Part shown: one piece after another, positions 253 to 39,373 of the stretch
Layout of the letters: every line of letters begins with the position of its first letter
Numbering within the stretch: position 1 is the first letter of the stretch
IMG/VR virus record: IMGVR_UViG_3300033121_001642
Location: 1-64,000 of that record
Reading direction: 5' to 3' (one strand)
Origin: a virus
Lineage: Duplodnaviria; Heunggongvirae; Uroviricota; Caudoviricetes
DNA length: 64,000 nucleotides
Notes under the pieces: model-generated
Databases searched by the model: none
What the model was told of the DNA's origin: nothing
Seen by the model: the letters and a program-made list of their open reading frames with translations, nothing else
Program-made: the position numbers and the translations under genes

Positions 253-550
253 AATCGCGCAAAACAGAAATACAGGTTTTAAGGTTGTTGGCTTTGCCAA
301 TGGCAAGGCATATTCTTTAGCCAACCGCAGCCTTCAATATAGCTTGGTTATTGGCAGCATCGTTGGAGATACCTTCTTAGGAACGACAGAACAGTTCGTT
401 ATAGACTATTATAGCAACATGACGGACGGCCAAGAGCTTTTACTGACCTACTCGTATGACGTAGCTGATATAATATCAGGCGGCGATTCTGCGAATGGCG
501 GCGAGGTAAGGGTAAGCAAGGCAAGGCTTGAAAGCGTCAGACCTCTGTAG
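242..550 (+). CDS. hypothetical protein; likely true start ATG 242 giving N-terminus MWYKIAQNRN (WY-motif family)
   Basis: ORF 212..550; internal ATG at 242 reproduces the recurrent MWYK(A/I)A N-terminus seen at 1720. Confidence 0.45.
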   Translation: MWYKIAQNRNTGFKVVGFANGKAYSLANRSLQYSLVIGSIVGDTFLGTTEQFVIDYYSNMTDGQELLLTYSYDVADIISGGDSANGGEVRVSKARLESVRPL

Positions 551-1637
551 GAGCGTCGAACATAAGATTTCGCGCAACAGGAGGAATACCCTTTTGTTGG
601 TTTTGGGGAACTTGCGTTGGAGCGTTCTTAGGCGGCAACTGCAATCCAACCTCTCGAAGGTCCAAGTCCCACTCCTCAAACTCGGTAGCATTACTAAGAA
701 GGTCCATTGCTCTTCGGATCTCGCCCTTAGAGTCTTGGGTAACGTCAGTTATATAATCAAGCATATCTCCGGTTTGGTGAGCGGAGTTGATAATAATATT
801 GATTGTAGCTAGCGCCTGACCAATAGGTTGACGTTCAACGCTCTTGAGCATATTATAAGCATTCTCTATTCTTTGTCTTGTTTGGTCTATGCCTTGGGGC
901 TTCCAGAAGCCGTACCAAATAGGGAAACATAGGAACTGAGCAAACTCTATACATATTTCCTGTAGGTCATACGTTTGAGAAGCCATCTCAAGAAAAGTTG
1001 CTAGATCGCCTCCATACCAAGTATCAAAGTATTCGGAGAAAGACATTTCTTCGTAGCGTTGTTTTATTTCAGCTTCGATTTCTTCCTCGTCTCTTTGGTC
1101 GTCAGGGTTTCTATTGTTTTCATAAATAGCATTTTCGGTATCAGCTTCTATAAGTTCATACTTTGCAGCTTCAAACAATCTACTTAATACTTGAGCTTGA
1201 CCATTCTTAACAGGTTCGTCAAGTCGATGTAACTCTGGAGATATGTTAAACTTTTTTCTTTCTCTATGAATATCGCATTCGCTTGCGATCATATCAGCGA
1301 GGGATTGCGGGGAATCTCCGTCTATTTCAAACCATTCGGTAACTCTTTTGGTTGCCCAAGTTCGAGGGGTAAGGAGTGCGTGACCTGAAAGCCAGTTTTC
1401 AAAGACTGGAACGAGTATATCCACAAAGTCTGCGATAACAGTTCTTGCAGAGCCTTCTATTTGTTGAAGGATGTTTTGTAATCTTGTTGGATGGCCTTGA
1501 AAGTTATGATGTTGTAAGTATTGGTATTTATAGGTAAGCTCATAGAGGGCGTAGAGCATGCTAGATATGGAGTCTCTATTATAGTTGACGTTCCATATAG
1601 GCGTGGCTGCAAACTTTGCTCTAGAATACCAGTTCAT
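537..1637 (-). CDS. hypothetical acidic protein (366 aa), N-terminus MNWYSRAKF (WY-motif family)
   Basis: Long ORF; start codon context ATGAACTGGTAT identical to 6704, 7582 and internal 6301. Confidence 0.6.
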   Translation of the reverse strand: MNWYSRAKFAATPIWNVNYNRDSISSMLYALYELTYKYQYLQHHNFQGHPTRLQNILQQIEGSARTVIADFVDILVPVFENWLSGHALLTPRTWATKRVTEWFEIDGDSPQSLADMIASECDIHRERKKFNISPELHRLDEPVKNGQAQVLSRLFEAAKYELIEADTENAIYENNRNPDDQRDEEEIEAEIKQRYEEMSFSEYFDTWYGGDLATFLEMASQTYDLQEICIEFAQFLCFPIWYGFWKPQGIDQTRQRIENAYNMLKSVERQPIGQALATINIIINSAHQTGDMLDYITDVTQDSKGEIRRAMDLLSNATEFEEWDLDLREVGLQLPPKNAPTQVPQNQQKGIPPVARNLMFDAPTEV

Positions 1638-1719: not shown

Positions 1720-2199
1720 ATGTGGTATAAAGCCGCTAACGAGACTTTTGTAACCTTATATCATGGCACCAGCCGTGAGAACTATCTTTTAATGAAGAGG
1801 TCTGGAGTTTTGAGGAAATCGGACGTACCGAACCTTACGACGAGCAAAGAGTTAGCGAAGGCGTTTGGGAAGCAGTTCTTTGAGGGCGATGAAACGGTCA
1901 TACTTTCTTTTGTACTTCCGCGAAATTTAATAGAAGGGCATGTTGGTACTGTAGTAACGACGGTTAGCGACATTCCAATGAAGTATATGAAGGGTATTGA
2001 GAAGTTTGACAGTTTGGACGCTTCGATAGGGAAGCCGGCGGACATAAGGCATAGGTTAGATATTAGTCAGCAAGTTGAGGGGTGGACGGCGGAGCAAGAG
2101 CGTATGGCGGTTGAGAAGATGAGGGAGTTGGAGAGGAATCCTAAAGCTTATATACCTGCGTGGATGAGGAACGACAATCGGTTTAGAGGAAAAGTGTGA
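1720..2199 (+). CDS. hypothetical protein; probable start at ATG 1720 (MWYKAANETF...)
   Basis: ORF 1675..2199; ATG 1720 gives the WY N-terminus; no recognisable domain. Confidence 0.55.
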   Translation: MWYKAANETFVTLYHGTSRENYLLMKRSGVLRKSDVPNLTTSKELAKAFGKQFFEGDETVILSFVLPRNLIEGHVGTVVTTVSDIPMKYMKGIEKFDSLDASIGKPADIRHRLDISQQVEGWTAEQERMAVEKMRELERNPKAYIPAWMRNDNRFRGKV

Positions 2200-4583
2200 A
2201 AAAATTAAGGAATTATACCTCTGGGAAATTTTTTCGTGCGAGCATGGCGGCGTTCGACGAGAAGGGGTTTAGCGGGATGGACTGGTTGAAGAAAGCGAGC
2301 AATATGAAGAAGAAGGCGAACGGCCCATGTCCGTTATGCGGCTCTCCCATGACAAAGAGGAAGGGGCCGTTTGGCGAGTTTTTTGGATGCAATAGATATC
2401 CTCAATGCAAAGGAGTAAGGAAGCTTAATGAAGCTCCTGCCGCTCCTCAGCAGCCGCAAGCTCCCCAACCTCGTCCGCCGCAGGCTGCTATGCCGCAGCC
2501 TGAAAAACAGAGAACATGGATTCTTGCAACAATGATTGCAACTGGCGAGCCTATTGTTGCTGCCAAGGGAGCAACAGGATGGGATTATCAAACAGAAAAT
2601 GGCGACTTTGGAACAATCCCAAACGCCGAAGTTGCAAAAACTATTAAGTCGGTTGAAGAAAACGGGCAAAAAGTTTCAGGAACTAATCCTGCAATTTTAT
2701 TCAACAAATATCATCAACTCAATCCTAAAGTTCAAGAAGCTGAACAACAGGCGGAAGCTCCTGGGCGAATACCCGCTAACAGAATAAGTCCCCAACAAAA
2801 AGATATTGAGAACTCATTTCTTAATACGCCTCAAAGCATCATGATTAATGCTCTTGCTGGATCTGGTAAAACAACCATGCTGCGTCACTTGGCAAGCTTT
2901 AAGCCGCCTGGCGAAAAGTGGCTATACTTGGTGTTCAATAAGAAGAACCAAGTTGAAGCCTCTACGGGCAAGGGTAGGTTCCCAAATGGCGTTGAAGTCA
3001 AGACGAGCCATAGTTTCCTTGGACAGGTGCTGGGTCGAAGCGCTGAGCTTAATATGGTTCAGCATACGGACCTGTGGAACGACTTTGGCGAACGTATTAC
3101 TCAAATTCTTGACCACATGATGGAAAGAGACAACACGTTTCCTCAATCTGTAAAATACGTTGCAAAGCAAACGATCAAACATCTTGCCTCTTTGAGCAAG
3201 GCTTTTGCGGTTCATCCTCAATCGCAAAACGCCGCTCAGCAAATGTCTGAGATTATCAGACAGTACAATATTGATACAGACCTGTCTCCTAACAAGGACA
3301 AAAATCCAAACGCAGCAGGGGTGAACTATGCGCCTCAAATCATAGACAAAGCTCTTGACTTGTTACATTATTGTTTGCCCGGAAATGCGCCAACTCCAGA
3401 ACTTAACTCTATGAGAGACCATGACGATACGCTATGGTACTCTGCAATCAACGATGTAAAGTGGCCTCGCTTTGACGTAGTTTTGGCAGACGAAGTTCAA
3501 GACTTCAATACTTGTCAAACGATTATGTTGCAGAAACTATCTCAGGCAGGCGCAAGAGTTATTGCGGTAGGCGACCCAAATCAAGCTATCTATATGTTTA
3601 GAGGCGCTGACGCTCAAGCTTTCCAGAAAGTTCAAGGCGTTCTTGGTCAAGCTCCAAATGGCAATGTTCCTCATGAACTTCCTGTTAACTACAGAAGCGG
3701 AAGAGCGATTATCAAATATGTCAACGAGAAAACTCATGTTAAGAACTTACAAGCCGGCAAGGACTTTGACGGTCAAGTAACCGAAGGCCGCAAGGTTGAA
3801 GAAGCTATGGGCGATATTTTCAATGAGAAGAAGCAAAGGAACAGGCTTGCGGAACAAACGGCATTTATTGCGAGAACAAACTCTCCTCTTGTCAAGACCG
3901 CCCTTGAGCTTATGAAGAATAATGTTGAGTTTGTCATTATTGGTAGAGACTTCTCGAAAGAACTTGTTGACCATATTCAGAAGATAACTGGCAAGGGCAG
4001 AATGGCGAAGAAGATTTCTATACGATTCCTTGGCGAAACAATTAATAACTTCCTAAGCGAAAGAGAAACGGCATGGAAGGGCAAGATTGCAAGAGAGTCT
4101 GAACTTAAGGATATGAAGGCAACAACCGAGGCTTTGAGCAATGTTATTGAGTATCTATCTGCTTCTGGCTATAGAGACCCTCAGCTAAATATGAGAGTTG
4201 ACGACAGTACGAGCTTTATTGAGTATATTAAGAAGAAGTTCGCCGGTGTCAACATGGATGATGCGGAAGAAGCAGAAGCCTTGAAGAAGAAAGACCCTTT
4301 ATCATATGTAACCCTTACTTCTGCGCATAGATCTAAAGGCTTAGAGTTTGATAGAGTCTTTATTCTTGAACCAAATCTCTTTCCTCATCCTAAGGCAAAA
4401 ACGCCCGAGGAACTTTTGCAAGAAGAGAATGCAAAGTATGTTGCATATACAAGAGCGATGAAGAGTTTGCATGTTCTTGCTCCAAGCAAGGAAGAAAAGA
4501 AAGAAAGAAGAGAGGCCTCTTCCAAGGCTGGTTGGTATATCAAGGCAAAGAGTACCAAAAAGAAAAGGAAGAAGAAAAAGTGA
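2196..4583 (+). CDS. UvrD/PcrA-like SF1 DNA helicase with N-terminal topoisomerase-type C4 zinc ribbon and P/Q-rich linker; C-terminus GWYIKAKSTKKKRKKKK
   Basis: CPLCGS..GCNRYPQCKG Zn ribbon; Walker A ALAGSGKTT; motif II LADEVQDFN; motif III GDPNQAIYMFRGA; motif IV NYRSG; motif VI TSAHRSKGLEFDRV; GTG start overlapping upstream stop (GTGTGA). Confidence 0.85.
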   Translation: MKKLRNYTSGKFFRASMAAFDEKGFSGMDWLKKASNMKKKANGPCPLCGSPMTKRKGPFGEFFGCNRYPQCKGVRKLNEAPAAPQQPQAPQPRPPQAAMPQPEKQRTWILATMIATGEPIVAAKGATGWDYQTENGDFGTIPNAEVAKTIKSVEENGQKVSGTNPAILFNKYHQLNPKVQEAEQQAEAPGRIPANRISPQQKDIENSFLNTPQSIMINALAGSGKTTMLRHLASFKPPGEKWLYLVFNKKNQVEASTGKGRFPNGVEVKTSHSFLGQVLGRSAELNMVQHTDLWNDFGERITQILDHMMERDNTFPQSVKYVAKQTIKHLASLSKAFAVHPQSQNAAQQMSEIIRQYNIDTDLSPNKDKNPNAAGVNYAPQIIDKALDLLHYCLPGNAPTPELNSMRDHDDTLWYSAINDVKWPRFDVVLADEVQDFNTCQTIMLQKLSQAGARVIAVGDPNQAIYMFRGADAQAFQKVQGVLGQAPNGNVPHELPVNYRSGRAIIKYVNEKTHVKNLQAGKDFDGQVTEGRKVEEAMGDIFNEKKQRNRLAEQTAFIARTNSPLVKTALELMKNNVEFVIIGRDFSKELVDHIQKITGKGRMAKKISIRFLGETINNFLSERETAWKGKIARESELKDMKATTEALSNVIEYLSASGYRDPQLNMRVDDSTSFIEYIKKKFAGVNMDDAEEAEALKKKDPLSYVTLTSAHRSKGLEFDRVFILEPNLFPHPKAKTPEELLQEENAKYVAYTRAMKSLHVLAPSKEEKKERREASSKAGWYIKAKSTKKKRKKKK

Positions 4584-6700
4584 GTTGGTTTACTCGCATA
4601 GCTGACATCAACTATCAGTCCTTGGGTTTTGACCAGGCTGCTGAATCTTATTTAAGAAGCTTAGACAATTGGGACCGAGGAACCGCTGTTGAATTATCAA
4701 AACTAACCGGAGCGAAAAGGGCTAATCAACTAGAGTTCCACCTCAATAACTACAAAGGATTTTTGTCTAATATTCAGGGTAAGATACCGAATCGTTTCTT
4801 ATTTCCAGTATATGGGTGGCTAAGTCGTGGCGTAATAAGATTACCTGAAGATTTGGGTAGATTAGCAAGAGCTTTGGCTGTTTTTACGCAACAAAATAAC
4901 AAGTTTCAGCTAAAGAATATACAGCAGTATCCTTCTCTTGGAGACCTTGAAGAAGCTGTTAGTAAGGTTACTGGCGTTAATGAAGAAAGCAAGCGCCAAG
5001 TTGCCAAAAACATAAAGATGCAAGGTAGTAGAGAGATCTACCGAGACGAAGAATGGCGCGTTATTGAGATGACGACTCCCGAAGCTGTTTGCGAACTTGG
5101 CAAGGGAACAAAGTGGTGTACAAACGCTGATAATGACGGTCTTGAAAATGCTCAAATGTATTTGAAGAGCGGTCCTTTGTTCTTGTTTTTGCATAATGAG
5201 GGCGGCAAGTGGCAGAAGTACGCTCAAGCAACGAAAGACCTAGATCAAGTAATGGACATTCTTGATAAGCCCATAAATGAGCCTCCTCAGTCTTTTATTG
5301 AAGTTCTCAAAAAGCTTGTTCAGCTTGGTCATATTAAAGACGAGAATTTCTTTGGCAATTATGCTAAAAAGGTTTCTTATAAAGGCGCTGACGTTGATTT
5401 TGCAAACTATTTTGAAAAGCAACTTAAAGAAAATGACGGAGATTTTCCTTCTTATGCCTTTAGAGATATAATTGATTATGTAGAAGAGTTTGGAAGGCTG
5501 GGCGCGGTTGAAGAAAAGATTATCTTTAAGCCAATTCTTTCTGACAAAAAGATGATTAAAAACTATGGAGTGACTAACGGTTCTCGTATTGAAGAATATC
5601 TTGACAAAGTTCTTCAACGAGGTCTTCGTTGGACAGAAGAGCGTCATGAGGGTCATATTGCAAACTCAACATATGCTCACGATTACTGGAAAGACAGATA
5701 CTCAAACTATAATTTTGGAGAAGGCAAGCCCGGAAATGGAGATTATTCTGTTTGGCCTGAGTATGAGGCTGCGATGCTTAGCAACCCTCGTCGCGCCGAC
5801 GAGTTGGTTAGCTATCTTTGGAACCTAAACGGAAACAAGAGGGCAGAAAAACGATTTGAAGATTACTTACTCAAGGCCGGTCAAGAAAGTCAAGATTATG
5901 AACATGCTATAAACTACGCTAAAAACTGCAATTTTAGATGGTCTGAACTTGAAAAGGCTATTATTCAAAGCGGTAAATTGTGGGATATGTACCAGTATGC
6001 TAAAGAGACTATAAACGGTAGATGGCCTGAAGTAGAGCCTTATTTTCTCAGCGACAAATGGGGAGGACTATCTGATGCTTTGTATTACGCTAGAGACGTT
6101 CTAAAACAAAGATGGCCTGAGCTTGAACAAAAAATCATGGAACTCAAAAATGGATGGGCTGCCGGTCAGTATGCCGTTTTGATTATGAAGGCAAGGTGGC
6201 CTGAAATGGAGCCTTATATTTTGTCTGGCAAAGACAAAGCGGTTCCAATCTATTATGAAAAGAACCTTGGAATATCAACAAGCAAAAATGCCCGTTCCGA
6301 AATGAACTGGTACAAAAAAGCTCAAAGACAGAAGGTTTATGATCTAGACGATAGCTACACTAATATTGGTCATTCTGGTCTTAGCGAAGGCATATATGGA
6401 TGTAACTACATTTGGGTTTTTTACAAGAACGGCTCGTTTAAACATACAAAAGAAACAAGCCTAATAAACAGTCACGAGATATGGAAAATTAGAGGCGAGA
6501 TATCAAGCGATTATATTTACAAAGGAAGAGTTGATATTTGTAATAAAATTGCAAGTCTAACAGCTTGCGATGTATGTTTTGAATCAATTGGAGTTCCCAC
6601 GAACGCTGCGAGAGAAATGTTTTGCATCAGAATGAAAGAAGTATGTAAAAACGCTATTTATCAAGTATTTGGAAATGATATTACAATAAGAGAGTTTTAG
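4580..6700 (+). CDS. hypothetical protein with three tandem ~40-aa 'RWPE(V/L/M)E' repeats; probable GTG start at 4580 ((M)SWFTRIADI...) overlapping the UvrD stop (GTGA). Contains an internal MNWYKKAQ motif ~135 aa from the C-terminus.
   Basis: ORF 4532..6700; GTG 4580 gives a WY-family-like N-terminus SWF; repeats RWPEVEPYFL / RWPELEQKIM / RWPEMEPYIL. Confidence 0.6.
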   Translation: MSWFTRIADINYQSLGFDQAAESYLRSLDNWDRGTAVELSKLTGAKRANQLEFHLNNYKGFLSNIQGKIPNRFLFPVYGWLSRGVIRLPEDLGRLARALAVFTQQNNKFQLKNIQQYPSLGDLEEAVSKVTGVNEESKRQVAKNIKMQGSREIYRDEEWRVIEMTTPEAVCELGKGTKWCTNADNDGLENAQMYLKSGPLFLFLHNEGGKWQKYAQATKDLDQVMDILDKPINEPPQSFIEVLKKLVQLGHIKDENFFGNYAKKVSYKGADVDFANYFEKQLKENDGDFPSYAFRDIIDYVEEFGRLGAVEEKIIFKPILSDKKMIKNYGVTNGSRIEEYLDKVLQRGLRWTEERHEGHIANSTYAHDYWKDRYSNYNFGEGKPGNGDYSVWPEYEAAMLSNPRRADELVSYLWNLNGNKRAEKRFEDYLLKAGQESQDYEHAINYAKNCNFRWSELEKAIIQSGKLWDMYQYAKETINGRWPEVEPYFLSDKWGGLSDALYYARDVLKQRWPELEQKIMELKNGWAAGQYAVLIMKARWPEMEPYILSGKDKAVPIYYEKNLGISTSKNARSEMNWYKKAQRQKVYDLDDSYTNIGHSGLSEGIYGCNYIWVFYKNGSFKHTKETSLINSHEIWKIRGEISSDYIYKGRVDICNKIASLTACDVCFESIGVPTNAAREMFCIRMKEVCKNAIYQVFGNDITIREF

Positions 6701-6703
6701 AGC

Positions 6704-7585
6704 ATGAATTGGTATAAATTATCCAACGGATTTGTTATAGAAGGCCCTTTTGACGGTAGCGGGCATATGACATCTGACGATCCGTCCATTATCTTTGAAG
6801 CAAAAATAGGCAAAGAGTCTATTGGCTATATTCTTGTTGTTATGCCAAAAAACAAGAACCCTTATGTTGGTCAAGTTACTGTTAAACCAGAAAATAGGCT
6901 AAATGGAGTTGCTACGGCTTTGTATAATAGAGTTGATTATTATTTACGAGAAAACGGTATTTTGCCATTAAATCCGTCTAGAGACCTATCTCCTGGTAGT
7001 CGTAGAATTTGGGATAAGAGATTAGGCAAAGGGATTGGCAAAGAAAGCCAAAGACTTTCTCCGCAACAAATCAATTTATATCATAATTTCAAATCGCCGT
7101 CTGGCGTTAAGCTTATTGGCAGCGGGGTGAGCGCTATTTTTCAAGTTCCAGGCATAAATCAAACACTCAACGGCGCTCAGCTTATGAATCAAGTTATTGG
7201 AAGAATACAAAAAGTTCTTGTACAAAATAATGTTCACACTATAGATACAAGTCCCGTCTCCCGATCTGACGCTATCGGTTTGGCTATTAGTTCTGAACCT
7301 GGAATCATTCATGTTGATATAGCAAAAATATTTAATACGATCAAAAATCAAGCTTTACCCTCTATTACTCAGCTTGATGGCGTAGAGGTTGATAAAGATA
7401 TTCAAAATGATATAATTGATAAAATTTCAAACTATATAACAAATCAATTGGCAAACACCACGGCGCATGAATCAAAACATAATATGGATTATTTTAATAG
7501 TTTTCCAAAAGGTCGGTTTGAATCTTCTGAAAGCGGTGCAGAGGGTTTTGGTAATCAAATTTCAAATCAATATTTCAAACTATGA
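6704..7585 (+). CDS. hypothetical protein, N-terminus MNWYKLSNGF; possible GNAT-like fold (VTVKPENRLNGVATALYNRV)
   Basis: ORF; GNAT motif-A-like R-x-x-G-x-A; WY start. Confidence 0.6.
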   Translation: MNWYKLSNGFVIEGPFDGSGHMTSDDPSIIFEAKIGKESIGYILVVMPKNKNPYVGQVTVKPENRLNGVATALYNRVDYYLRENGILPLNPSRDLSPGSRRIWDKRLGKGIGKESQRLSPQQINLYHNFKSPSGVKLIGSGVSAIFQVPGINQTLNGAQLMNQVIGRIQKVLVQNNVHTIDTSPVSRSDAIGLAISSEPGIIHVDIAKIFNTIKNQALPSITQLDGVEVDKDIQNDIIDKISNYITNQLANTTAHESKHNMDYFNSFPKGRFESSESGAEGFGNQISNQYFKL

Positions 7586-10500
7586 ACTGGTATTACGATC
7601 AAATTATTAAAGAAAGCGCAATGGGAGACAATTCTGTTGAAGCTTTTCTTGCGCGAATTGGAGTTCCCGAAGAAACAATAAGTTATGTTACAACCATAAC
7701 AAACCCAGAGTTGAAGCAGCAAGTTGTTGGTTATTTGCGCAAGTTCCCTCAAACTCCTTCGGTATTGTTGATGGACAAACTTAGGCCGCAAAATCAACCT
7801 CAGCAAAACCCAAATACTCCTCAAGAAGTTCAACTTGCCAATAGGTTTCAGAACCTTGAGTTTCAGAAGTGGTTACTTGTTGCTTTGAGAAAAGCAAGAA
7901 ATGAATATCAGATCAAAAAGAAGCCTGACGGCATTGCTCTTACAGGAGACGGATATTCAATTCCAGGTCGAGGAAATGTCAACTTTACTTTGATACCAGA
8001 TATTGCTCAGAGTATATTTGACTGGTATGTAAGAGGCGTTCTTCCTGCAAGGCAAGCTTTTCAAGCTGCTCAAACACCAGAAGAGCAGGCTGTTGTTGTC
8101 AACGAATACGGTGTAACGAATGCAAATACCAACCTTGCTGGGCTAACGCTTGACCAAGCGGATCGGTTTGCAGAAAACTGGCATGATGTTATTTCTGGAG
8201 AAGGCGAAGGGCTTGAATATTACGGCGAAAAAAGAGAAGACATAGTATATGGCCCTCAATGGAGTAGACCAGAATGGGCTGGTTGGACAATTAAACAAGT
8301 TGTAACAAAGAACAACCTAAGAACTGAAGGCGGCAAGATGGGACATTGTTTTGCTGAAGGTTCTTTAATAAGAACCAAAAAAGGATTTATTCCTATTGAA
8401 GATATAGAAACAGGAGATTTTGTTCTTGTTGAAGATGGAAGTTTTCAAAAAGTAACAGAAAAATTTGAAAGAGAATATAATGGAGAAATTATAAAATTAG
8501 AAACAAGACTTGGGGTTGAACCTGTTTTTGTTACGCCAGAACACTTGTTTTTATCCTTAAAATCAAACCATAAAGGCAACAAATCTTGTAAACTTCATAC
8601 TTGCGGATCATTGTGCAGAAATAATAAACCAGAAGAAAAACACAATATTGAATGGCAACCTATTGAGTCCTTAAAAGATTCGTATATTTTATCCAGAATT
8701 CCAAAAGAGTTCGAAGATATAAATGAACTTATCATACCTAATCATTGTATTGTAAACAAATCAAAAGGCGATAAAAAATACAAATGCGATAAAGATTTAT
8801 TGTGGATTTTTGGCATATACATAGCAGAAGGATCAAATGACGGTGATAAACTCAGTTTTGCTCTTGCAAAAAAAGAAACAGACTATGCTAATAAAATAAT
8901 ATCTTTCTTCTCAAAGGCGGGATTTTCTGCTCGTATAAGAAAAGATAAAGAAAATTACGGCGGTCTTGTTGTTTTAGTAAATAGTAGAATGCTGTGCAGG
9001 TGGTTCTCTGAAATGTTTGGATGTGGTTGTAATAATAAAAAAATACCCTCAAAATTACTTAATTTACCTAATGATAAGATTTTTCATATTTGGCAAGGAA
9101 TATTTGACGGCGATGGATGTAAAAACAGAAACATATTACATCAAACCTCAAAAGAACTTGCTCTACAAATGACAGAGATATCTCTTAGGCTTGGTGGTTT
9201 GCCTTCTTTGTCAAGAAAAGATAATAGCAAAAGAAACAGAAAAACAGCATATGTTCTTGAAGGAGCAGATGCTAGAGTTGAAAGAAATTCTCGGAAAAAA
9301 CACTTTTGGATACACAAAAAAGAAGTTTTAGTAAAACCAATTTGCCATGAAAAAGTAAATTTTAAAGGCAAAGTTTACAACATAGAGGTCGAAGGTATCC
9401 ATTCTTATGTTGTTCAGCACCTTGTTGCTCATAATTGCGTCGGAAGCTATTGCGACGATGTTTTGAAAGGTAATACGAGAATTTTCTCGCTTCGAGACCC
9501 GTCTAATACTCCGTATGTAACGATGGAAGTTGACCCTAAAAGCTGGACTTTTAGACAAATTTATGGCGACGGGCCTAAAACAGGAAACGTTGAGCCAAGC
9601 GACAACTCAAAAGCGATGATTGGCGAGTGGATGAAGACTCTTAAGGGCGCTTCTATTGAGGGCATGAATGACTTTGATTACAGCGATCTTAGTTACGGAA
9701 GCATGGACGACGATCTTGAAAGAGCTATATACAAAGGAGCAGAAGGTTATGGCTTGCCCATTTCTCTTACGGGATGGGAGTATCAAGACGCATACGAAGC
9801 TGTTTACAACAAGCTCAATAATGACCGAGGATATCGCAATGACGGCGGATATCAAACGCATCATGTTTCAAAGGTTCTAGCTAGAGCCGCTGTTGACTCT
9901 GATATACAAAAACTAAACGAAGGGCTTATTGATGAAGCTCGAATGAAAAAGATAGCGCTAGATTGGGCGCATAAGACTCCAAAGCATCATGTTATGAAGA
10001 AAGAGCATTTTGACAGAATGACTCCTGAAAACAAAAGAGAGTATCTGAAGGAATATTTACCAGAAGCTGCCGCTTCAGTTAAAAGAGAAACAGATCAAGC
10101 TCTAAAAGACAAATGGCAAGGATGGGAAAGATATACGAGTCCTCAAGCTGTTGAACAAAAGACGCTTGAAAGGGCTTATTACAATATGAGTCAGGCTAAA
10201 GAGTTTGATTATTCCAAGCTAAAAAGCTTTGATCAACTAGACGAGAAGAATCAAAAAAGGTTTATGGCTCAAGTTCTTGACGCTCAATTTCAAATTGCGC
10301 AAATTTATGAAAAGCGGCAAGAAAACGACGAAAATTTCTACGATTATTATAATGATGATTATTTAGAGCTTCCAGAAGAGCCCGTGGAAGATGACTTTTC
10401 AGATCCCGAAGAATATCAAAAAGCTGTAAGCGAATGGGAAGACGAAAGGCAAAGAATTGAAGACGAAGCCGCCGACTCTCATAGGAAGGAAAACCTTCCA

Positions 10501-11457
10501 TATTGTCTTGACGACGCCGTTATAGAAGACGTTGAAAAAACTCTCATGCAAACTCAGATTAAGCTACCAAGATGGTTTAGTAAATACTTCAACAAGAAAC
10601 AAGATAATAGAAGTCATTATCCAACAATACTTTGGACTCTTGAGGGGATTGCTCGTAAAAAGAAGGAAGCGATCAAAGGGAAAAAGAAACGAAGAGCAAG
10701 CGGTTGGTATAATATTTGTAAGTTTTCAGAGTCTTTTTTAGTTAAAAAAGTGACAGATATTTATGCCATTACTTTTGACCAAGCAAAAAGAAGCGACCTA
10801 ATTGAGGACGGAAACAAGTTTAAATCTAACGGTTCTTATACTTTTGTTGATGATAGTAAAATGATTTGCAGGGACGAAGATTATAATATGTGGGTCGAAG
10901 ACGTTTCTGATTTTGATAAAAGATACAAAATTAAAGACGGCAAAAAGAAACAAATCAGGAGTCCTTTCAAGGAAGGTTTTTGGCAGAGATACGAACCAAC
11001 AGAAAATGCAAAAAATATTGTTGAAGAAGTTTCTGAAGACGAAGTTTTATTAAAAGAAGATAAAAACAACGGAGACGAATGGGAAATAACCATAGAAGAG
11101 TATGGAAAAAACTACAAGAAAGCGAATGGAGGGTTTTCGCCGGACGAGACCAAGAGCAATATAGAGATTGAAGATTCAGAGTGCATCAACAATCATCGTT
11201 GGCGATCAGACATGATCATGCGAGGTTACGACACTCAAACGAACGAGCTTGTTGGGCAACTGAGCTATAGTGTATTTGGCAACGAGTTGCATATTAGCAT
11301 GATTGAAATTGTTCCAAAATACCGAAGGCAGGGGGTTGGGACTCTTTTGATTAAAAAGATGAAAGAAGAAAATCCTGGCTTAGTAATAAAGCCGGGCCTC
11401 ATGACAAATGACGGCTACTCTTTCTTTAGAGCTTTAAAACGCAGAAGAGTCATATAA
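7582..11457 (+). CDS. large hypothetical protein (1291 aa including intein), N-terminus MNWYYDQII; LAGLIDADG intein inserted after ..EGGKMGH; C-terminal GNAT-like acetyltransferase motif (IVPKYRRQGVGTLLIKKM); highly charged central region
   Basis: ORF overlaps upstream stop as ATGA; intein blocks and GNAT motif read from translation. Confidence 0.75.
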   Translation: MNWYYDQIIKESAMGDNSVEAFLARIGVPEETISYVTTITNPELKQQVVGYLRKFPQTPSVLLMDKLRPQNQPQQNPNTPQEVQLANRFQNLEFQKWLLVALRKARNEYQIKKKPDGIALTGDGYSIPGRGNVNFTLIPDIAQSIFDWYVRGVLPARQAFQAAQTPEEQAVVVNEYGVTNANTNLAGLTLDQADRFAENWHDVISGEGEGLEYYGEKREDIVYGPQWSRPEWAGWTIKQVVTKNNLRTEGGKMGHCFAEGSLIRTKKGFIPIEDIETGDFVLVEDGSFQKVTEKFEREYNGEIIKLETRLGVEPVFVTPEHLFLSLKSNHKGNKSCKLHTCGSLCRNNKPEEKHNIEWQPIESLKDSYILSRIPKEFEDINELIIPNHCIVNKSKGDKKYKCDKDLLWIFGIYIAEGSNDGDKLSFALAKKETDYANKIISFFSKAGFSARIRKDKENYGGLVVLVNSRMLCRWFSEMFGCGCNNKKIPSKLLNLPNDKIFHIWQGIFDGDGCKNRNILHQTSKELALQMTEISLRLGGLPSLSRKDNSKRNRKTAYVLEGADARVERNSRKKHFWIHKKEVLVKPICHEKVNFKGKVYNIEVEGIHSYVVQHLVAHNCVGSYCDDVLKGNTRIFSLRDPSNTPYVTMEVDPKSWTFRQIYGDGPKTGNVEPSDNSKAMIGEWMKTLKGASIEGMNDFDYSDLSYGSMDDDLERAIYKGAEGYGLPISLTGWEYQDAYEAVYNKLNNDRGYRNDGGYQTHHVSKVLARAAVDSDIQKLNEGLIDEARMKKIALDWAHKTPKHHVMKKEHFDRMTPENKREYLKEYLPEAAASVKRETDQALKDKWQGWERYTSPQAVEQKTLERAYYNMSQAKEFDYSKLKSFDQLDEKNQKRFMAQVLDAQFQIAQIYEKRQENDENFYDYYNDDYLELPEEPVEDDFSDPEEYQKAVSEWEDERQRIEDEAADSHRKENLPYCLDDAVIEDVEKTLMQTQIKLPRWFSKYFNKKQDNRSHYPTILWTLEGIARKKKEAIKGKKKRRASGWYNICKFSESFLVKKVTDIYAITFDQAKRSDLIEDGNKFKSNGSYTFVDDSKMICRDEDYNMWVEDVSDFDKRYKIKDGKKKQIRSPFKEGFWQRYEPTENAKNIVEEVSEDEVLLKEDKNNGDEWEITIEEYGKNYKKANGGFSPDETKSNIEIEDSECINNHRWRSDMIMRGYDTQTNELVGQLSYSVFGNELHISMIEIVPKYRRQGVGTLLIKKMKEENPGLVIKPGLMTNDGYSFFRALKRRRVI
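8347..9435 (+). mobile_element. Intein with LAGLIDADG homing-endonuclease domain (363 aa) inside the 7582..11457 gene
   Basis: Starts CFAEGSLIRTKKGFIPIEDIETGDFVL (block A), LAGLIDADG-like LWIFGIYIAEGS and IWQGIFDGDGCK, ends ..VVQHLVAHN followed by +1 Cys (CVGSY). Confidence 0.8.
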
Positions 11458-11801: not shown

Positions 11802-13418
11802 ATGGCTATCACTCCAAAGGCAAAGAAGACGGAACTTCAGGAGAATCCTTTTCAGGACGTTCAGGTTGAGCGTTCTGGCAAGCTGATTACTCTTCCCAGC
11901 GATCCTCGCGACATGGAGATTCAGGAGGCGATTGAAGCTCTTCGCGGCGTTCAGGCCGACGAAGAGGCCGAAACGTCAATCAATCACGAGATTGAGTGCT
12001 TCCCTCTCGACGGTCTTGTGAACTTCAATCGAGCCTGTCTTGAGGAGTTTGGCATCGCTATCGGTACTCCAACTCCCGGCTTCTGGGGTCCGACTCCTCC
12101 AACCATGATGACGGTTCCGATTGGCTATAACACCAAAACGCAGGTTCCCTGGGGAAGCATCAGTTTTCCTCAGTTGAAGGATAGTCGTCTTGAGACGATT
12201 GTTCCTGGCAAGGGTAACACCAAGCCCAAGTTCATCATTGGCGGCGAAGTTCTGAAGAAGTATCAAAAGCAGGTTCAATCCATTGCGGCTCGTACCGAGA
12301 AAAATCTTCGCGAGAAGAGCATTTACAAGGGCAAGGCCATCAAGGTTTCGTTTGCTTGGATGCGAGAGAGTCGCGACTTCCATCCAACGAACGACGCCCC
12401 AACCTTCCTGGATGTTTCCAACGCTCGCAAGGACAACCTTATTTTCGGCAAGGAAGTTGCTGATCTCATCCAGACTGGTCTGTTCTCTGCAATTGAGAAG
12501 ACGAAATCATTCCGCGAGTTTGGTATTCCTCTCAAGCGCGGCGTTCTGCTCACTGGTCCTTACGGTTGCGGTAAGACCTTGACCGCTTATACGACGGCCA
12601 AGATTTGCGAAGACAACGGCTGGACGTTCATGTATGTCTCGAACGTTGAAGACCTGCCGATTGCTCTGAAGTACGCCAAGCTGTACTCGCCCTGCGTCAT
12701 CTTCGCTGAGGACGTTGATATCGCAACCAACGGGCCTCGCAGCACTCAGTTGAACGAGTTGCTGAACACCATCGACGGCGCTGATTACAAGGATGCTGAG
12801 ATCATCACGATCTTGACGACCAATCACGCCGAGAACATCAATCGCGCCTTCCTTCGTCCTGGTCGTATCGACACGGTTATTCCTGTCGAGCCGCCTGACC
12901 GCGAAGCAACAATGCGTTTGATTAAGAATTATGGTGGCGAGTTGCTTGCTGACGGCACGGACCTGAATCCTGCCGCCGAGTTCTTGGCTGGTCAGATTCC
13001 GGCGACCATCCGAGAGTGCGTTGAGCGAAGCAAGATTTCGGCTCTCACTCGCACAAGCAACATCACTGGTCAGGTTACGAGCGAAGACCTCATCATTGCT
13101 ATGAAGGGCATGGAACCTCATATGCGACTCCTCAACGGGGCCAAGACTGGCGACGGTCCTTCGGTTATGGAGGTTGGCCTCGCCTGCTTGGGCGCTGGTA
13201 TCGGTCGCGGCATTGCTGCAACGGGCGGAGCAAACCTGCCTCCTGTTCTCAAGCAGATTGCTGACATGGCCGTTACTGAGACGCTCATGAAGTTCCTTCA
13301 GGTCGCTAACACTGACGGCTCTGGTCAGTCCTTCAAGAGCGCTGAGGATGTCAAGAAGGCGGGTCTCAACCTGAATGGTGTCAAGGCTCCTCCGATTGGC
13401 GCTGTCGCCAAGGCCTAA
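11802..13418 (+). CDS. AAA+ ATPase (classic-clade AAA domain: Walker A GPYGCGKT, Walker B VIFAEDVD, second region of homology), ~230-aa N-domain, Gly/Ala-rich C-tail; markedly GC-rich (~53%) relative to neighbours; paralog of 39374..40720
   Basis: Motifs read from translation; RBS GAGGT 9 nt upstream; flanked by own promoter and terminators. Confidence 0.8.
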   Translation: MAITPKAKKTELQENPFQDVQVERSGKLITLPSDPRDMEIQEAIEALRGVQADEEAETSINHEIECFPLDGLVNFNRACLEEFGIAIGTPTPGFWGPTPPTMMTVPIGYNTKTQVPWGSISFPQLKDSRLETIVPGKGNTKPKFIIGGEVLKKYQKQVQSIAARTEKNLREKSIYKGKAIKVSFAWMRESRDFHPTNDAPTFLDVSNARKDNLIFGKEVADLIQTGLFSAIEKTKSFREFGIPLKRGVLLTGPYGCGKTLTAYTTAKICEDNGWTFMYVSNVEDLPIALKYAKLYSPCVIFAEDVDIATNGPRSTQLNELLNTIDGADYKDAEIITILTTNHAENINRAFLRPGRIDTVIPVEPPDREATMRLIKNYGGELLADGTDLNPAAEFLAGQIPATIRECVERSKISALTRTSNITGQVTSEDLIIAMKGMEPHMRLLNGAKTGDGPSVMEVGLACLGAGIGRGIAATGGANLPPVLKQIADMAVTETLMKFLQVANTDGSGQSFKSAEDVKKAGLNLNGVKAPPIGAVAKA

Positions 13419-13605: not shown

Positions 13606-13619
13606 TTTTGGGAAAACTA

Positions 13620-16412
13620 ATGAGTTGGTATAGCATAATCAGGTCAATGATAAAGGTTGCAGGACCAAAGGAAAAGATACAGAAGTACGGAGTCACAGAC
13701 CCCGCTCTTCAGCTTCTTATTATGCGCTATGAGGGGATGATTAAGTGGAACGGCTATACCGTTGAAGGCAAAAACGAGGCCGGAGAAGATACTCAAGTCC
13801 AAAAGTCAATTGAGAACCAAAACGATATCAATGATTTTATCAAGGCTGTTTTACTACCAAAAGTCTTTGCTAAAGTAGATCAAAACAATCCAAATAACAA
13901 CTATATAAAAAAGTTTGATGTTGAAGCGGGTTATAACTTTGCTAGACAGAACAACATATTCAATCCCGAACTTGAACACGCCTATAATATGTCTAAGCAT
14001 GACAAGGAAGGCGCTGAAAAGTTTTATGTAGGCGTTATCAACAACATTAAGAAGCAAGCGTTTGACGGTTGGATAACCTACGTCAAAGACCATCCTGATT
14101 ATTCGAGTAGCCCTGCTTTCGTTTATCTTCTTTTGAATCCTGTATTTGACAGTTCAGGTCCAAAGACTATCAATCCGGCTCCGACCGCCTCTCCTCCTGT
14201 TATTGCTCAAATATTTCAAAAAGTCAAGAACGTAAAGTTCAAATACAACGGTCCAATCAAAGACGAGAATGTTTTCAAGAAGGTTTTGTCTCTTGCAAAG
14301 GAAGGCAAACCCATTGACCAGATTGCTCAGGAACTAAACCTTCCGCCAGAACAAGTTCAAGACGCTATAAGTCAAAATAACTCTCGCAACATTGATATAT
14401 TCAAAGACTATGAGAAGAATCTTATTGAACACAGTCTTTCTGTTGCCAAGCAGGGGTATAACGAAGTTGAAAAAAGCGGCTGGTTAAAACTTCCAAGTAA
14501 AGATAAAACAAAAGACGGCGTTGACAAAGACGGCAAACCAATATCCGCTGAGAAAGTTTTCGAAAACAATGTTGAAATACTTCATAACTTCTCGGTTCCG
14601 AATGCCTGGTGTACAACCAGACATAGTAACGGGCCGAGATATCTTAGCGCTGGTGATTTTTGGATATTAGTTGAAAACGGTAAAGCAAATGTTGGTATTC
14701 GTTTTAGCGGCGAAAACATTGTTGAGATTGCAGGCGATCAAAGCTATGCAGGCGGAGTAAGCCGTTCTTGTCCAACAGCTTATTGGCGAGAAATTACAGA
14801 CATTATTTACAGAGAAGGTCTTGAGCCTAAGATTACAGATTATGCTAAAACTCACTGGGACCAAATTCTTAAAGAAGCAAATCTTAATAAGAGCTTTTTC
14901 AACGACGACGGAACTCCAAATCTTGAAGAGATTGAAGAGTTTAGGAAAATGCTTCTTAATAATCCTGCTCTCTATAACAGAGTTACAGAGAACGATAAGT
15001 TTGCTCAATATCCTCAGCTTCTAGAGGGGCTTCAAACAGCATGTAAAGAAGGTTGGTTCAAAAAAGTTCAGAACCTTAGCGGAAACGACGCTCTTCAGAT
15101 GGCTGAGAATGTTGCAGCCAACGCTCAGAACATGCCTGAGTTCGTTCTTAGAGATCCGGCTTTCATGGAAAACGTTCACGGAAGACTCACGGCTCTTTAT
15201 GAAAACAGCCCTGATCGTATTAGAAATGTTCTTGAGAAGGTTCCTAATCACTGGAGAGATTATCCAAGAGGTAAAGAGGTCTTCAAACACGCTGTCCTTA
15301 GAAAGTATCAAGAAGGTCTTTATTGGAAAGCAAATGTTTTTAGCGCTAGCAGAAAAACCAAAGAGCAAAAGGGCAGGATTGCCACTGCCAAGATCGAATA
15401 TGACGCTCTTCAGCAGGTAATTGGCGACTTATTACCAGAGCTTCACGCAGATAAGGATTTTGAACAAGCTATTAATGTCGCTAAGAACCAAAGCGCTGAA
15501 GTTGCGGCCAAAGAAGGCTATATTGCTGTTGACACCCCAAGACCTGTTATTGATAGAATTTTTGCAGATCCTGCCAACGTTGAGGAAATGGCTGAAAAAT
15601 ATGCTGATAAAATAAGTAAAGCTCATTTAGAGCCTCATTCTAGACAAACAGAGACTTCGGTTCTTCTTGACTCTTACATGGACTCAGAGTTCTTAGCAAT
15701 TGCCCCTCTTTGGGTTAGAAAAACACCTGGTTTCCAGAACTTTATAAATCTTACAAAGAAAAAGGTTCTCATTAAGAGCGTTCACAACTTTCCAAGTTTT
15801 GATCCTCGCTACAAAGAAGATCCTGAACTTTATCAAATGTATAAAGATTATATTCTAGCTAATGATCCTCTTAAAAAGAAACTCGTTGGCAAAGATAAGA
15901 TTGATCCAAGACTTTTGGATGACAAAGACTATCAAGCGGCGGTTGGCAATTTCGATCAAGGCGTTGATCAGGTTCTTAAGACAATGAAGTGGAGAGCTTC
16001 TGTATATCTAACTCTTCCGCCTCAGGTTCAAGAGAATCCACAGGTTGTTGAAGCGTATATACAATCAAGGGTTTATTCCACAAACATGAACTTTCAAAAC
16101 GCTTTGGCTAAGGAGTTTCCTCAATTACCCGAGTTTTTGAAAGAAAATCCAGTTATTCAACAAAAATATCTTGAAGTTGTTAAGAGGCTTATGAGAACAG
16201 CAATGCCTGGAGATAAGGCGAACTATATAAATTGCAACGAGCTTGATATCATTGCGGCTCAAGACCATGAAATTGTCGAGATGTGTAATAAAAGAAATAC
16301 TCCCTTCAATTTTCCTGTTATTGAAGACGTTGATAACGAAGATCAAGGAATGGATTTCCCGCAAAAAAATGCCTCTAAAGGATGGTATAGGAAAGCGGCT
16401 ACAACATATTGA
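13620..16412 (+). CDS. large hypothetical protein (~930 aa), N-terminus MSWYSIIRS, C-terminus ..KGWYRKAATTY
   Basis: ORF 13608 uses a TTG start; ATG 13620 fits the promoter and the WY motif; no recognisable domain. Confidence 0.7.
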   Translation: MSWYSIIRSMIKVAGPKEKIQKYGVTDPALQLLIMRYEGMIKWNGYTVEGKNEAGEDTQVQKSIENQNDINDFIKAVLLPKVFAKVDQNNPNNNYIKKFDVEAGYNFARQNNIFNPELEHAYNMSKHDKEGAEKFYVGVINNIKKQAFDGWITYVKDHPDYSSSPAFVYLLLNPVFDSSGPKTINPAPTASPPVIAQIFQKVKNVKFKYNGPIKDENVFKKVLSLAKEGKPIDQIAQELNLPPEQVQDAISQNNSRNIDIFKDYEKNLIEHSLSVAKQGYNEVEKSGWLKLPSKDKTKDGVDKDGKPISAEKVFENNVEILHNFSVPNAWCTTRHSNGPRYLSAGDFWILVENGKANVGIRFSGENIVEIAGDQSYAGGVSRSCPTAYWREITDIIYREGLEPKITDYAKTHWDQILKEANLNKSFFNDDGTPNLEEIEEFRKMLLNNPALYNRVTENDKFAQYPQLLEGLQTACKEGWFKKVQNLSGNDALQMAENVAANAQNMPEFVLRDPAFMENVHGRLTALYENSPDRIRNVLEKVPNHWRDYPRGKEVFKHAVLRKYQEGLYWKANVFSASRKTKEQKGRIATAKIEYDALQQVIGDLLPELHADKDFEQAINVAKNQSAEVAAKEGYIAVDTPRPVIDRIFADPANVEEMAEKYADKISKAHLEPHSRQTETSVLLDSYMDSEFLAIAPLWVRKTPGFQNFINLTKKKVLIKSVHNFPSFDPRYKEDPELYQMYKDYILANDPLKKKLVGKDKIDPRLLDDKDYQAAVGNFDQGVDQVLKTMKWRASVYLTLPPQVQENPQVVEAYIQSRVYSTNMNFQNALAKEFPQLPEFLKENPVIQQKYLEVVKRLMRTAMPGDKANYINCNELDIIAAQDHEIVEMCNKRNTPFNFPVIEDVDNEDQGMDFPQKNASKGWYRKAATTY

Positions 16413-19400: not shown

Positions 19401-19564
19401 AAAATGGCATTGAGTTTGGCGCAAAGGATAATGATTTCGGACAAATTGCGATTGACTTCAATGACGCTGTTATCGAAAGAGAAATTGAAGGCAATGACGA
19501 CGAAGAAAATCCTCGCCAAGCATCCACTTGGTATGATCGAATGATATTGGCAGGTTCTGTGTAA
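16433..19564 (+). CDS. SNF2-family (SF2) helicase/ATPase with N-terminal P/Q-rich low-complexity region; C-terminus ..STWYDRMILAGSV
   Basis: Motif I LGDKTGTGKT; motif II LILDEAHLIKN; C-terminal helicase lobe with KGGTGVSL and QTEGRAFR (motif VI). Confidence 0.85.
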   Translation: MNNYFDITKIAQNMNEPIAPAPQPVAQPQPEPIVQPEAAAPVEQNQAQPLANQPPVQPPGQPPVARPQRGGNRPLIFVKEAAFGNWMSIVVEVPSMTKEEFNSLQSLAKAYIQSTKKPNGTYPTWATWVNKAKKGALQIADFKLFSKTKDMEGRFVNIGTTEAPFFTQILDKLSEMGFDTAQIQRYEKQNDPAVLVEQQQQPPPVEQKNKVEVSKPEGWQTLIVKFERNNDIRNFIVNNRIGGRWDPAYIAWRFDLRGDPPILPSRLESMSEFMRQKDFDTTELDAAIKEYKNELEKNKENLKDPLKTLVVNDATRNTKFLVSINFPRTPQLIREMEDYVKFSFPSKGDLTDLKLDPVPENYHTKPPKQLPNGRWEPSGMRLDQQNKWYAYGSFDDFFRFGALIKSRGWDVTNLRTTLSGLLRSKALERTRYSGELDGYEVKDENGRQLKDAKGNPQFDYERFYKDVEEITGDRAKLFDKQKDGVRWLYERGNAILGDKTGTGKTLTTLVAAAMRLKQSGGRCLIITLKTTQIQWANEIQNKLGEDPANISFNPGDNKKWTIITYPNISAAPEKNNAGVILQPNGSPVLKPRWKSKQQIIDGIFNTQFTALILDEAHLIKNETSGASQIMALIAPKVPFKWGASATSAANTAIDVHNILSIVGHTLGEISTRDFNKEFVGRKSTIRDFADPIKAREILALQEEKAYNLRKWLTLSGAYLSRSQKAINPNLPEHVIDEQYISEEDFDIRAFARDFENIKAQYGGNAGAALAVLTKQRVLIAQMKVPHTMALAKEILDRGEKVLVFSNFRTCCQSLYAGLDAHLKAQDPDFEVVRIMGDDNGAAIMNAVAQFKDPENPARAMVIAAKKGGTGVSLENSTQNVIMNDFDWSPYIAEQTEGRAFRITNVMPVNTKYMVVKGPDGRLSPDEVFYKFVRSKIKIAQIIQNLDSEAEEYILNGLNDAKIQAEIAKARAADMEADVQLGKDLNEMFAENGIEFGAKDNDFGQIAIDFNDAVIEREIEGNDDEENPRQASTWYDRMILAGSV

Positions 19565-19625: not shown

Positions 19626-20423
19626 ATGTCTAATTGCAAGTTTAGCGTAACGGTCTCGCTGTCCCAAGGAGCAGAAGAATCTATGGAGCAAATGCTTCAT
19701 GGAGACGAACCCTCTTTCTGTCCTCCATTTGATAAAATAGATCAGGAAGCAAAAAAGAATAAAGGTGATTTCTATAGCTGGAACAAAACCTCTTGCGACT
19801 ACTGCTTTGAATCAAAGGAAGATGCTGAACGTTTTATGAAGAATATAAGAAGAAAATTCAAAGACAAGATAGAGGTCAAGTTTCAAGAAGACCAGGAAAG
19901 AGGTCATATGAGATCATTCAAATCTCTACCAGATAGTTTACAAGAAAGAATAAGCGAACTTACGCCAAAGACGATTAATGGCAAGAAAGTTGGTATTCAC
20001 CTTATTGATAGCGGTGTCCTTTTACTTCCTGAAAAAGAAGAGCATTCGGAACTGTTTCGTTTGACCTATGCAAATATTCGATGCAAAATCAGAGGCAAGG
20101 TTATCAGTCAACCCCTAATACTTCGCTCTGCCCCAAAAATGATAGAAAAAGTCCTAAAGAAGACCAAGAATGCTTCTTTTGAAAAAGCTAAGGCTGCTGG
20201 CTGGCAAAATAGCGACATATTCTATGATTCTATCATAAATAGCATCTTTAAGCAGGACGTTTGCGAAGAAAAGTACAACAACAAAAGTTGTCCTGAGATT
20301 GGCTTTGCAACAACTCATGTAAAAATCGTGATTGCCGATTATTTCGGCGAACAGTTTGTTGGTTGGTTTTTCTATAATGAAAATCTTGATGAACCAATGA
20401 ACTATACCAGTTATAGCTCATGA
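19626..20423 (+). CDS. hypothetical Cys-containing protein
   Basis: ORF only. Confidence 0.55.
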   Translation: MSNCKFSVTVSLSQGAEESMEQMLHGDEPSFCPPFDKIDQEAKKNKGDFYSWNKTSCDYCFESKEDAERFMKNIRRKFKDKIEVKFQEDQERGHMRSFKSLPDSLQERISELTPKTINGKKVGIHLIDSGVLLLPEKEEHSELFRLTYANIRCKIRGKVISQPLILRSAPKMIEKVLKKTKNASFEKAKAAGWQNSDIFYDSIINSIFKQDVCEEKYNNKSCPEIGFATTHVKIVIADYFGEQFVGWFFYNENLDEPMNYTSYSS

Positions 20424-39372: not shown

Positions 39373-39373
39373 T

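Follow-up and report, generated by a model that had tools for sequence, protein, structure and literature searches.

Canonical class 1 inteins with a LAGLIDADG homing endonuclease include PI-SceI in the yeast VMA1 protein and the inteins of archaeal polymerases or ribonucleotide reductases (RNRs). The PcfJ family of proteins was named after PcfJ of the Enterococcus plasmid pCF10. In this study, an intein was analysed in a gene for a PcfJ-domain protein within a 64,000-nt stretch of DNA from a virus of the Caudoviricetes (IMG/VR record IMGVR_UViG_3300033121_001642, positions 1 to 64,000; hereafter the window). A PcfJ-GNAT gene of a probable jumbo phage is very probably interrupted in frame, at nucleotides 8347-9435, by a canonical class 1 intein equipped with a LAGLIDADG homing endonuclease. 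In common with the canonical elements, it has Cys1, a TxxH block B, two LAGLIDADG motifs, block F, a His-Asn end and a +1 Cys, lies in frame at a highly conserved host motif and occurs as empty and filled alleles. It differs from them in its divergent sequence, an extra Cys/His-rich segment after block B and a host protein that is not an enzyme of replication or nucleotide metabolism.

Translation of the open reading frame (ORF) at 7582..11457 on the plus strand gave a precursor of 1291 amino acids (aa), consisting of N-extein, intein and C-extein; its ATG overlaps the stop codon of an upstream GNAT ORF (6704-7585). The N-extein (7582..8346, 255 aa) starts with MNWYYDQIIKE and ends in NNLRTEGGKMGH. 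The first half of the match to Pfam PcfJ falls in its last approximately 20 aa (8287-8346), where the alignment shows an invariant Glu-Gly and a near-invariant His at position -1. The intein (8347..9435, 363 aa, aa 256-618 of the precursor) lies between GKMGH and CVGSYCDD, a junction written below as H/C. Reading of the plus strand showed block A, CFAEGSLIRTKKG (8347..8385), with Cys1 as the first nucleophile; block B, Thr-Pro-Glu-His (8533..8544, intein aa 63-66); a Cys/His-rich insert, HKGNKSCKLHTCGSLCRNNKPEEKH (8569..8643, intein aa 75-99), between the N-terminal Hint half and the endonuclease; LAGLIDADG motif 1, LLWIFGIYIAEGS (8797..8835, intein aa 151-163, ending IYIAEGS), with the acidic Glu kept; LAGLIDADG motif 2, IWQGIFDGDGC (9088..9120, intein aa 248-258), with the acidic Asp kept; and blocks F and G, VYNIEVEGIHSYVVQHLVAHN (9373..9435, intein aa 343-363), ending LVAHN with the penultimate His and terminal Asn. 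The next codon, TGC (9436..9438), encodes the +1 Cys; this residue is the second nucleophile in splicing and at the same time the invariant Cys of HCVG in PcfJ.

The C-extein (9436..11454, plus strand, 673 aa) begins with the second half of the Pfam PcfJ match (9436..9570; CVGSYCDDV...RIFSLRD...PYVTMEV...FRQIYG) and continues through the remaining PcfJ core, a long helical region, an internal boundary motif (RRASGWYNICKF), an extra module missing from the approximately 800-aa homologues, and a terminal GNAT acetyltransferase domain (11194..11367). The original prediction, made by reading the letters, had placed a LAGLIDADG intein at GKMGH/C in the 1291-aa protein; its coordinates proved exact to the base, and block A, the LAGLIDADG motifs, the terminal His-Asn and the +1 Cys that it had described as intact were all found, together with block B. 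Cys1 and the block B His were kept in 7 of 7 aligned inteins from the PcfJ site and the block B Thr in 6 of 7, with P0120 reading TGNH (P numbers denote database proteins and L numbers retrieved loci). The relatives, too, end in His-Asn before a +1 Cys, Ser or Thr, the exception being P0119, which ends in KN. P0002, P0010 and P0116, which have the closest inteins of the PcfJ site, keep the Cys/His-rich insert in identical or near-identical form; in P0118 and P0119 the insert is degraded, and P0120 lacks it. The insert may serve in metal binding or in DNA recognition.

When the insert alone was compared with Pfam, Hint_2 matched at 39.8 bits (cut-off 28.4, E = 7.7e-10) and LAGLIDADG_3 at 40.2 bits (cut-off 22.5, E = 4.1e-10), both above their cut-offs. 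Removal of the insert in silico left a 928-aa protein collinear with the intein-free P0001 (83% identity, 100% coverage), and the PcfJ Pfam score rose from 32.4 bits in the precursor to 42.5 bits, with the match then crossing the junction. The insert is an intein, far beyond chance, because its exact excision restores uninterrupted homology to intein-free proteins over the full length. The same in-silico removal, which had been suggested as a check, recovered conserved homologues of the spliced extein (113 proteins, P0001 at 83%), and the intein blocks were not degenerate.

Several observations weigh against a canonical element. The Pfam model Intein_splicing scored 31.4 bits, under its cut-off of 35.8, and the NCBIfam models intein_Nterm (TIGR01445; 19.5 vs. 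a cut-off of 24.5) and intein_Cterm (TIGR01443; 14.5 vs. 15.6) also fell short, both aligning end to end. Block F reads VYNIEV, with Asn where Asp is usual; this Asp is used in catalysis by some inteins. As the curated intein models were narrowly missed, the intein is considered divergent. A sequence search of the PDB with the intein returned no chain at E <= 0.01. That the insert is some other Hint module, either a bacterial intein-like domain or a pretoxin-HINT cassette, is exceedingly unlikely: weak Pfam matches to PT-HINT and Hint, both under the cut-off, would fit such a module, but the insert lies inside a conserved domain, ends in His-Asn followed by a +1 Cys and has a LAGLIDADG domain nested within it, the host sequence is regained when the insert is cut out exactly, and the closest relatives of the insert are all insertions flanked by C...HN/C, S or T in other proteins.

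The host protein had originally been described as lacking any recognisable fold other than a GNAT-like motif at the C-terminus. The first part of this description did not hold. The spliced extein matches the PcfJ-like family PF14284 at 42.5 bits (cut-off 25; profile positions 67-133 of 147), a domain that the intein interrupts, and the unspliced precursor already matches it on the C-extein side at 32.4 bits; PHROG families 8470 and 3169 showed the same gain after splicing. The second part was borne out, since Acetyltransf_1 was matched by both precursor and spliced protein (26.1-26.7 bits vs. a cut-off of 20.7; 26.1 bits at 11194..11367), and Foldseek with a full-length model of P0001 gave matches that were all GNAT structures at the C-terminal domain (best E 0.012, probability score 1.0). 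Nearly all of the 113 proteins found with the spliced sequence were annotated as PF14284, and all 26 cropped homologues matched Pfam PcfJ. By these profile matches the host extein is a PcfJ-domain protein with a terminal GNAT domain, belonging to a named family widespread on phages and plasmids. The motif common to the family, EGxxMxHCVGxYCxDVxxGxxRIFSLRD..PxVTxE, is present here once the protein is spliced, and phage and plasmid matches are annotated as PcfJ-like or, as in the matching plasmid genes, "PcfJ domain-containing protein" (for PcfJ domain genes on plasmids, see also PMC8594834). The host protein of the window differs from the family in being much larger, with approximately 670 aa confidently modelled, terminated by GNAT and interrupted by an intein.

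Other searches with the gene and its product gave little. Megablast of the gene against 50,697 phage records returned no match, tblastn returned only short PcfJ or GNAT matches, and the assembly index contains no record of the 1291-aa protein itself. Full-length P0001 matched PDB sequences only weakly, at the C-terminal GNAT domain and a protease. In the literature searched, nothing relevant to PcfJ function was found, PcfJ figuring only as an annotation label, and no paper linking PcfJ with inteins was found.

The H/C junction lies in the most conserved part of this family. In an alignment of 65 sequences, invariant columns were E250, G251, C257, Y261, S274, L275, R276, T285 and Q297; H256, the -1 residue, was conserved in at least 90% of the 65 PcfJ sequences, and C257, the +1 Cys, in all. 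The alignment thus places the intein inside the PcfJ domain between a near-invariant His and an invariant Cys, in the most conserved motif of the host, and the earlier view that the insertion site is important and conserved holds. P0001 (932 aa), P0003 to P0009, P0011 and more distant members carry EGGKMGHCVGSYCDDV without an insert, GHCVG being contiguous, and in P0002 (1157 aa) and P0010 (1051 aa) this position is filled by a 363-aa intein.

The conservation may have a reason other than catalysis. If the H/C motif were structural or metal-binding, with His, Cys, Cys and His as ligands, the intein would mark conservation only. The consensus GHCVGxYCxDV...PHVT, in which H, C, C(+5) and the later H could bind zinc, agrees with this explanation, which we consider somewhat unlikely. 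The second Cys and later His vary, the window protein having PYVT and some members SYAADV or SYRDDL, and the invariant set (E250, G251, C257, Y261, S274, L275, R276, T285, Q297) resembles a polar pocket more than a zinc knuckle.

The PcfJ core was then considered at the level of predicted structure. AlphaFold2 modelling of P0001 with 65 homologues gave a mean predicted local distance difference test (pLDDT) score of 81, with residues 80-670 mostly above 90. Because matches to the C-terminal GNAT domain dominated the Foldseek search with the full-length model, a cropped model without this domain was built. The predicted order of elements in P0001, beta(237-241), alpha(244-254), alpha(262-266), beta(271-276), beta(282-288), beta(294-299) and alpha(312-323), appears to correspond to GNAT beta1-alpha1-alpha2-beta2-beta3-beta4-alpha3. 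With a GNAT-like fold, H256/C257 would lie on the loop between alpha1 and alpha2, a loop lining the acceptor site of GNATs, and in the model Q297-I-Y-G-D-G sits where GNATs have the Q/RxxGxG/A pyrophosphate-binding motif. The core differs from GNATs in having a longer loop after the QxxG string and in its conserved His-Cys, without counterpart in typical GNATs. Foldseek matches of the core to GNAT structures were weak (E-values 0.17 or worse), and hhalign of the PcfJ core against a GNAT alignment, with a match probability of 0.14%, gave no sequence support. The cropped cores had no GNAT Pfam match at E <= 10, and the PcfJ profile had no match in the PDB. On balance, the model leads us to favour a GNAT-like fold for the PcfJ core by a little. 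An enzymatic role of the His-Cys motif is plausible; the motif may be the active site of an enzyme, and it could also be structural or ligand-binding. We know of no catalytic activity of PcfJ. A more elaborate proposal, which we regard as quite unlikely, is that PcfJ is a highly divergent GNAT-fold enzyme using the invariant Cys and adjacent His of the alpha1-alpha2 loop for acyl transfer or hydrolysis on a host target, with the intein as a redox or context switch keeping the effector inactive.

To survey related inteins, the intein was compared with 1.84 billion cluster representatives by exhaustive phmmer, giving 7030 hits at E <= 1e-3 and 107 at E <= 1e-30; the extein flanks of the best 150 of the 7030 were inspected. 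The counts are from phmmer and not from a word-indexed search, which gave 2 archaeal IscU inteins and missed P0002 and P0010. Five of the best 6 hits were PcfJ proteins with the intein between EGxxMxH and CVGxYC, and their identities to the window intein were 82% (P0010), 55% (P0116), 50% (P0118), 47% (P0119) and 42% (P0120). The site is therefore occupied in at least five protein clusters formed at 50% identity, P0010 representing the window's own cluster. The remaining hits among the best 150 were all in other exteins, including phage proteins with a CxxC/...HN/CFGTGFxGGY junction, proteins with the N-terminus ISSRVNxNxDxWP, the HDVLGH/C family and others. One of these, P0117 (third by score), is a 1543-aa phage protein with a different extein and two tandem inteins of the same clade; each has approximately 370 aa, and only a few residues of extein lie between them (VVHN/CGSEWNGMVCTN/CFGPDT).

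In IMG/VR, 4 of the 50 retrieved PcfJ loci (L025, L027, L052, L056) had an intein at H/C. Identity to the window intein was 46% for L027, 39% for L056 and 24% for L052 (IMGVR_UViG_3300015607_000582), whose PcfJ protein contains a 346-aa intein at this site. Since inteins as distant as that of L052 share one H/C site, the sequences suggest that the site either has been held for a very long time or has been invaded, repeatedly or independently, more than once. Related phage-borne inteins in other exteins and the IscU/NifU inteins of DPANN archaea (P0114, P0115) share 30-40% identity over the 363 aa, are built in the same way and start similarly, with CF(x)PGTLVRT. They differ in occupying unrelated hosts and sites; H/C is confined to the five PcfJ representatives, which are also the most similar (42-82%).

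The window contains a second LAGLIDADG intein, at approximately 41716-42822 (aa 315-683) in the ORF for the RNR large subunit (40774-44421), where it occupies the classical NP/C...HN/CGE site. The possibility that the RNR intein seeded the PcfJ intein, or the reverse, was rejected, as the two have no significant similarity. The UvrD-like helicase is 795 aa long in the window (2196-4583) and 763-769 aa in L001 and L004; that of L002 (3828-7010) is 1060 aa long and has an Intein_splicing match. These lengths suggest that the helicase gene is a third site at which this phage lineage is polymorphic for an intein.

Empty alleles (L001, L004) and filled alleles (the window, L002, L003) were compared at the DNA level. 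The empty site reads GGNAARATGGGTCAT/TGCGTNGG and differs from the flanks of the filled alleles at wobble positions only; the junction sequence of the empty site in L004 and L001 is GGCGGCAAAATGGGTCAT/TGCGTCGGAAGCTATTGCGAC. In a neighbour-joining tree of exteins, the window paired with P0002 (100% bootstrap) and the empty P0001 with the filled P0010 (82%), the latter pair adjoining the former. As empty P0001 is grouped among filled alleles, the distribution of the intein is patchy within a clade whose genes are 82-89% identical in nucleotides. The G+C content of the intein is 31.2%, compared with 41.8% for the N-extein and 39.1% for the C-extein. Ratios of nonsynonymous to synonymous substitution rates (dN/dS; Nei-Gojobori, three filled copies pairwise) were 0.10-0.14 for the whole intein. 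By part, the N-terminal Hint half gave 0.10-0.24, the Cys/His insert 0.02-0.10, the LAGLIDADG region 0.11-0.17 in all three pairs and the C-terminal Hint half 0.12 or less. By these ratios every sub-domain of the intein, the endonuclease included, is under purifying selection.

With empty and filled alleles coexisting, these ratios suggest that the intein, whose blocks are intact, is probably active and still mobile, in line with the activity that had been proposed from its blocks. It is rather unlikely that the intein still splices while its endonuclease no longer homes, so that it would be a vertical passenger late in the homing cycle. In favour of this, the three close copies are all exactly 363 codons long, and between the window and L002 the divergence of the intein keeps pace with that of the extein (90% vs. 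89% nucleotide identity). Nor did a sliding-window comparison of empty and filled alleles delineate a co-conversion tract; it showed only general mosaicism. The alleles are indeed mosaic, L003 and L004 being 96% identical just upstream of the site and 84% across it, and recombination between these phages is therefore frequent. Against a passenger stand the low dN/dS of the LAGLIDADG region in the three pairs, the retention of both acidic residues in the window copy and in most of the distant inteins of the PcfJ site, the nesting of an empty allele among filled ones, and the G+C content of the intein, approximately 9 points under that of the host gene.

For an active, mobile intein, the following sequence of events is proposed. 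The 1291-aa precursor would be made with its PcfJ core broken between the predicted helices alpha1 and alpha2. By the established class 1 chemistry, Cys1 would undergo an N-S acyl shift, the thioester would be attacked by the +1 Cys, cyclisation of Asn363 would free the intein, and an S-N shift would leave the 928-aa protein with its native EGGKMGH-CVGSYCDD. The freed intein, acting as a LAGLIDADG endonuclease, would cut intein-less alleles in co-infecting phages across GGNAARATGGGTCAT/TGYGTNGG, and recombinational repair would copy the intein into the cut allele (homing). We infer splicing, DNA cleavage and the host function from the sequences.

A regulatory use of splicing was also considered. 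The intein might have been co-opted as a conditional switch, holding back splicing and PcfJ activation until a cue, such as a redox signal sensed through Cys1 and the +1 Cys or conditions after delivery. Both nucleophiles are Cys and flank a functional motif, the extra Cys/His-rich insert (aa 75-99) is present, the site is occupied in many distant PcfJ proteins, and conditional splicing is documented for other inteins, e.g. that of RadA (PMC4513877). We nevertheless judge such a switch very unlikely. Most PcfJ proteins, including orthologues 83-87% identical, are without the intein, which is therefore dispensable, and the complete endonuclease is kept, as is typical of a selfish element.

The PcfJ-GNAT gene belongs to a co-directional block. 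Upstream are genes for the UvrD-like helicase, which has a Top1-type zinc ribbon (2196-4583), a 722-aa protein without Pfam match (4532-6700) and the GNAT protein (6704-7585); downstream are an AAA ATPase (11802-13418), a 934-aa protein (13608-16412), a SNF2 helicase (16433-19564), a methyltransferase (20420-20992) and, following it, an SPFH protein and then an ABC/SMC-like ATPase. The AAA ATPase matches phrog_10440 (E = 2e-110), its best phage relative being 43% identical and from a 595-kb uncultured phage. As a viral contig of 333,623 bp carries the gene most closely related to this PcfJ gene in IMG/VR, the phage lineage is probably that of a jumbo phage. No link to the "Jug" gut jumbo phages was established, the paper on them treating inteins in general terms only. 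The window also has two paralogous AAA-type ATPases of the phrog_10440/3757/7485 group (39263-40720 and 11802-13418), and very large ORFs without PHROG match at E <= 1e-5 (45043-55281, 3412 aa; 57330-61562, 1410 aa; 13608-16412, 934 aa). By these searches much of the window is uncharted phage sequence.

Two features recur in the neighbouring ORFs. The 722-aa ORF (4532-6700) has a ELGKGTKWCTNADNDG module and tandem repeats of approximately 35 aa ending RWPE(V/L/M)E. In P0119, similar CRDTEWC(V/I)KDPKY modules and KDRWPEGE repeats are fused to a PcfJ protein, and from this fusion the products of the 722-aa and PcfJ genes may work together. The second feature is a shared N-terminal peptide (MNWYSRAKF, MNWYKLSNG, MNWYYDQII, MSWYSIIRS), with ORF starts of the MNWY type at 1637..537 (minus strand), 6704, 7582 and approximately 13620. 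Within proteins, the motif is found after a basic stretch, as SEMNWYKKAQRQ in ORF 4532-6700 (at 6305) and as KRRASGWYNICKFS in the PcfJ protein (ORF 7582, at about nt 10730). It further occurs at module boundaries of homologues (KLAMNWYKSAAE in P0018; ASNWYNLIKLADKRSF and FTNWYGILKLANKRSF in P0119), and P0118 ends in RWYK. By its positions, the peptide looks like a tag shared by N-termini and module boundaries, which could signal targeting or packaging, be cut by a protease or be left over from gene fusion and fission.

The fusion partners of PcfJ in other proteins are ART-PolyVal, repeats of the ankyrin or pentapeptide type, and a kinase-like domain, and in L003 an ART-PolyVal gene lies just upstream of the PcfJ gene. 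Polyvalent proteins of phages and conjugative elements were described by Iyer et al. 2017 (PMC5512222), in which PcfJ and inteins are both unmentioned. The present locus is like them in encoding a multidomain phage protein that combines GNAT with another conserved domain (PcfJ), in having PcfJ homologues fused to or beside ART-PolyVal, and in the SNF2 and UvrD helicases and methyltransferase nearby. It is unlike them in being split into separate genes. By analogy of this domain company to that of polyvalent proteins, the host is probably an accessory, host-directed "conflict" or early-delivered protein and not a core replication enzyme.

The intein of the window is mechanistically ordinary; what is new is the extein family, the recurrence of the H/C site in distant phage PcfJ proteins and the structural hint of a GNAT-like fold. 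The element adds a divergent Cys1/Cys+1 intein family narrowly missed by standard annotation models, and it extends the phage hosts of inteins past enzymes of replication, nucleotide metabolism and packaging to what is probably an accessory or "conflict" protein. Phages and conjugative plasmids commonly carry PcfJ-like proteins, to which the literature searched assigns no function. Inteins settle in residues that a protein cannot change, and a recurrent intein at His/Cys singles out this dipeptide, together with the invariant E, Y, S-L-R, T and Q, as a pointer to PcfJ function. As the intein lies in the most conserved PcfJ motif, this motif is the place to test the function of the family, and the predicted GNAT-like fold gives a testable lead, namely acyl-CoA binding and a possible Cys-dependent acyl transfer.

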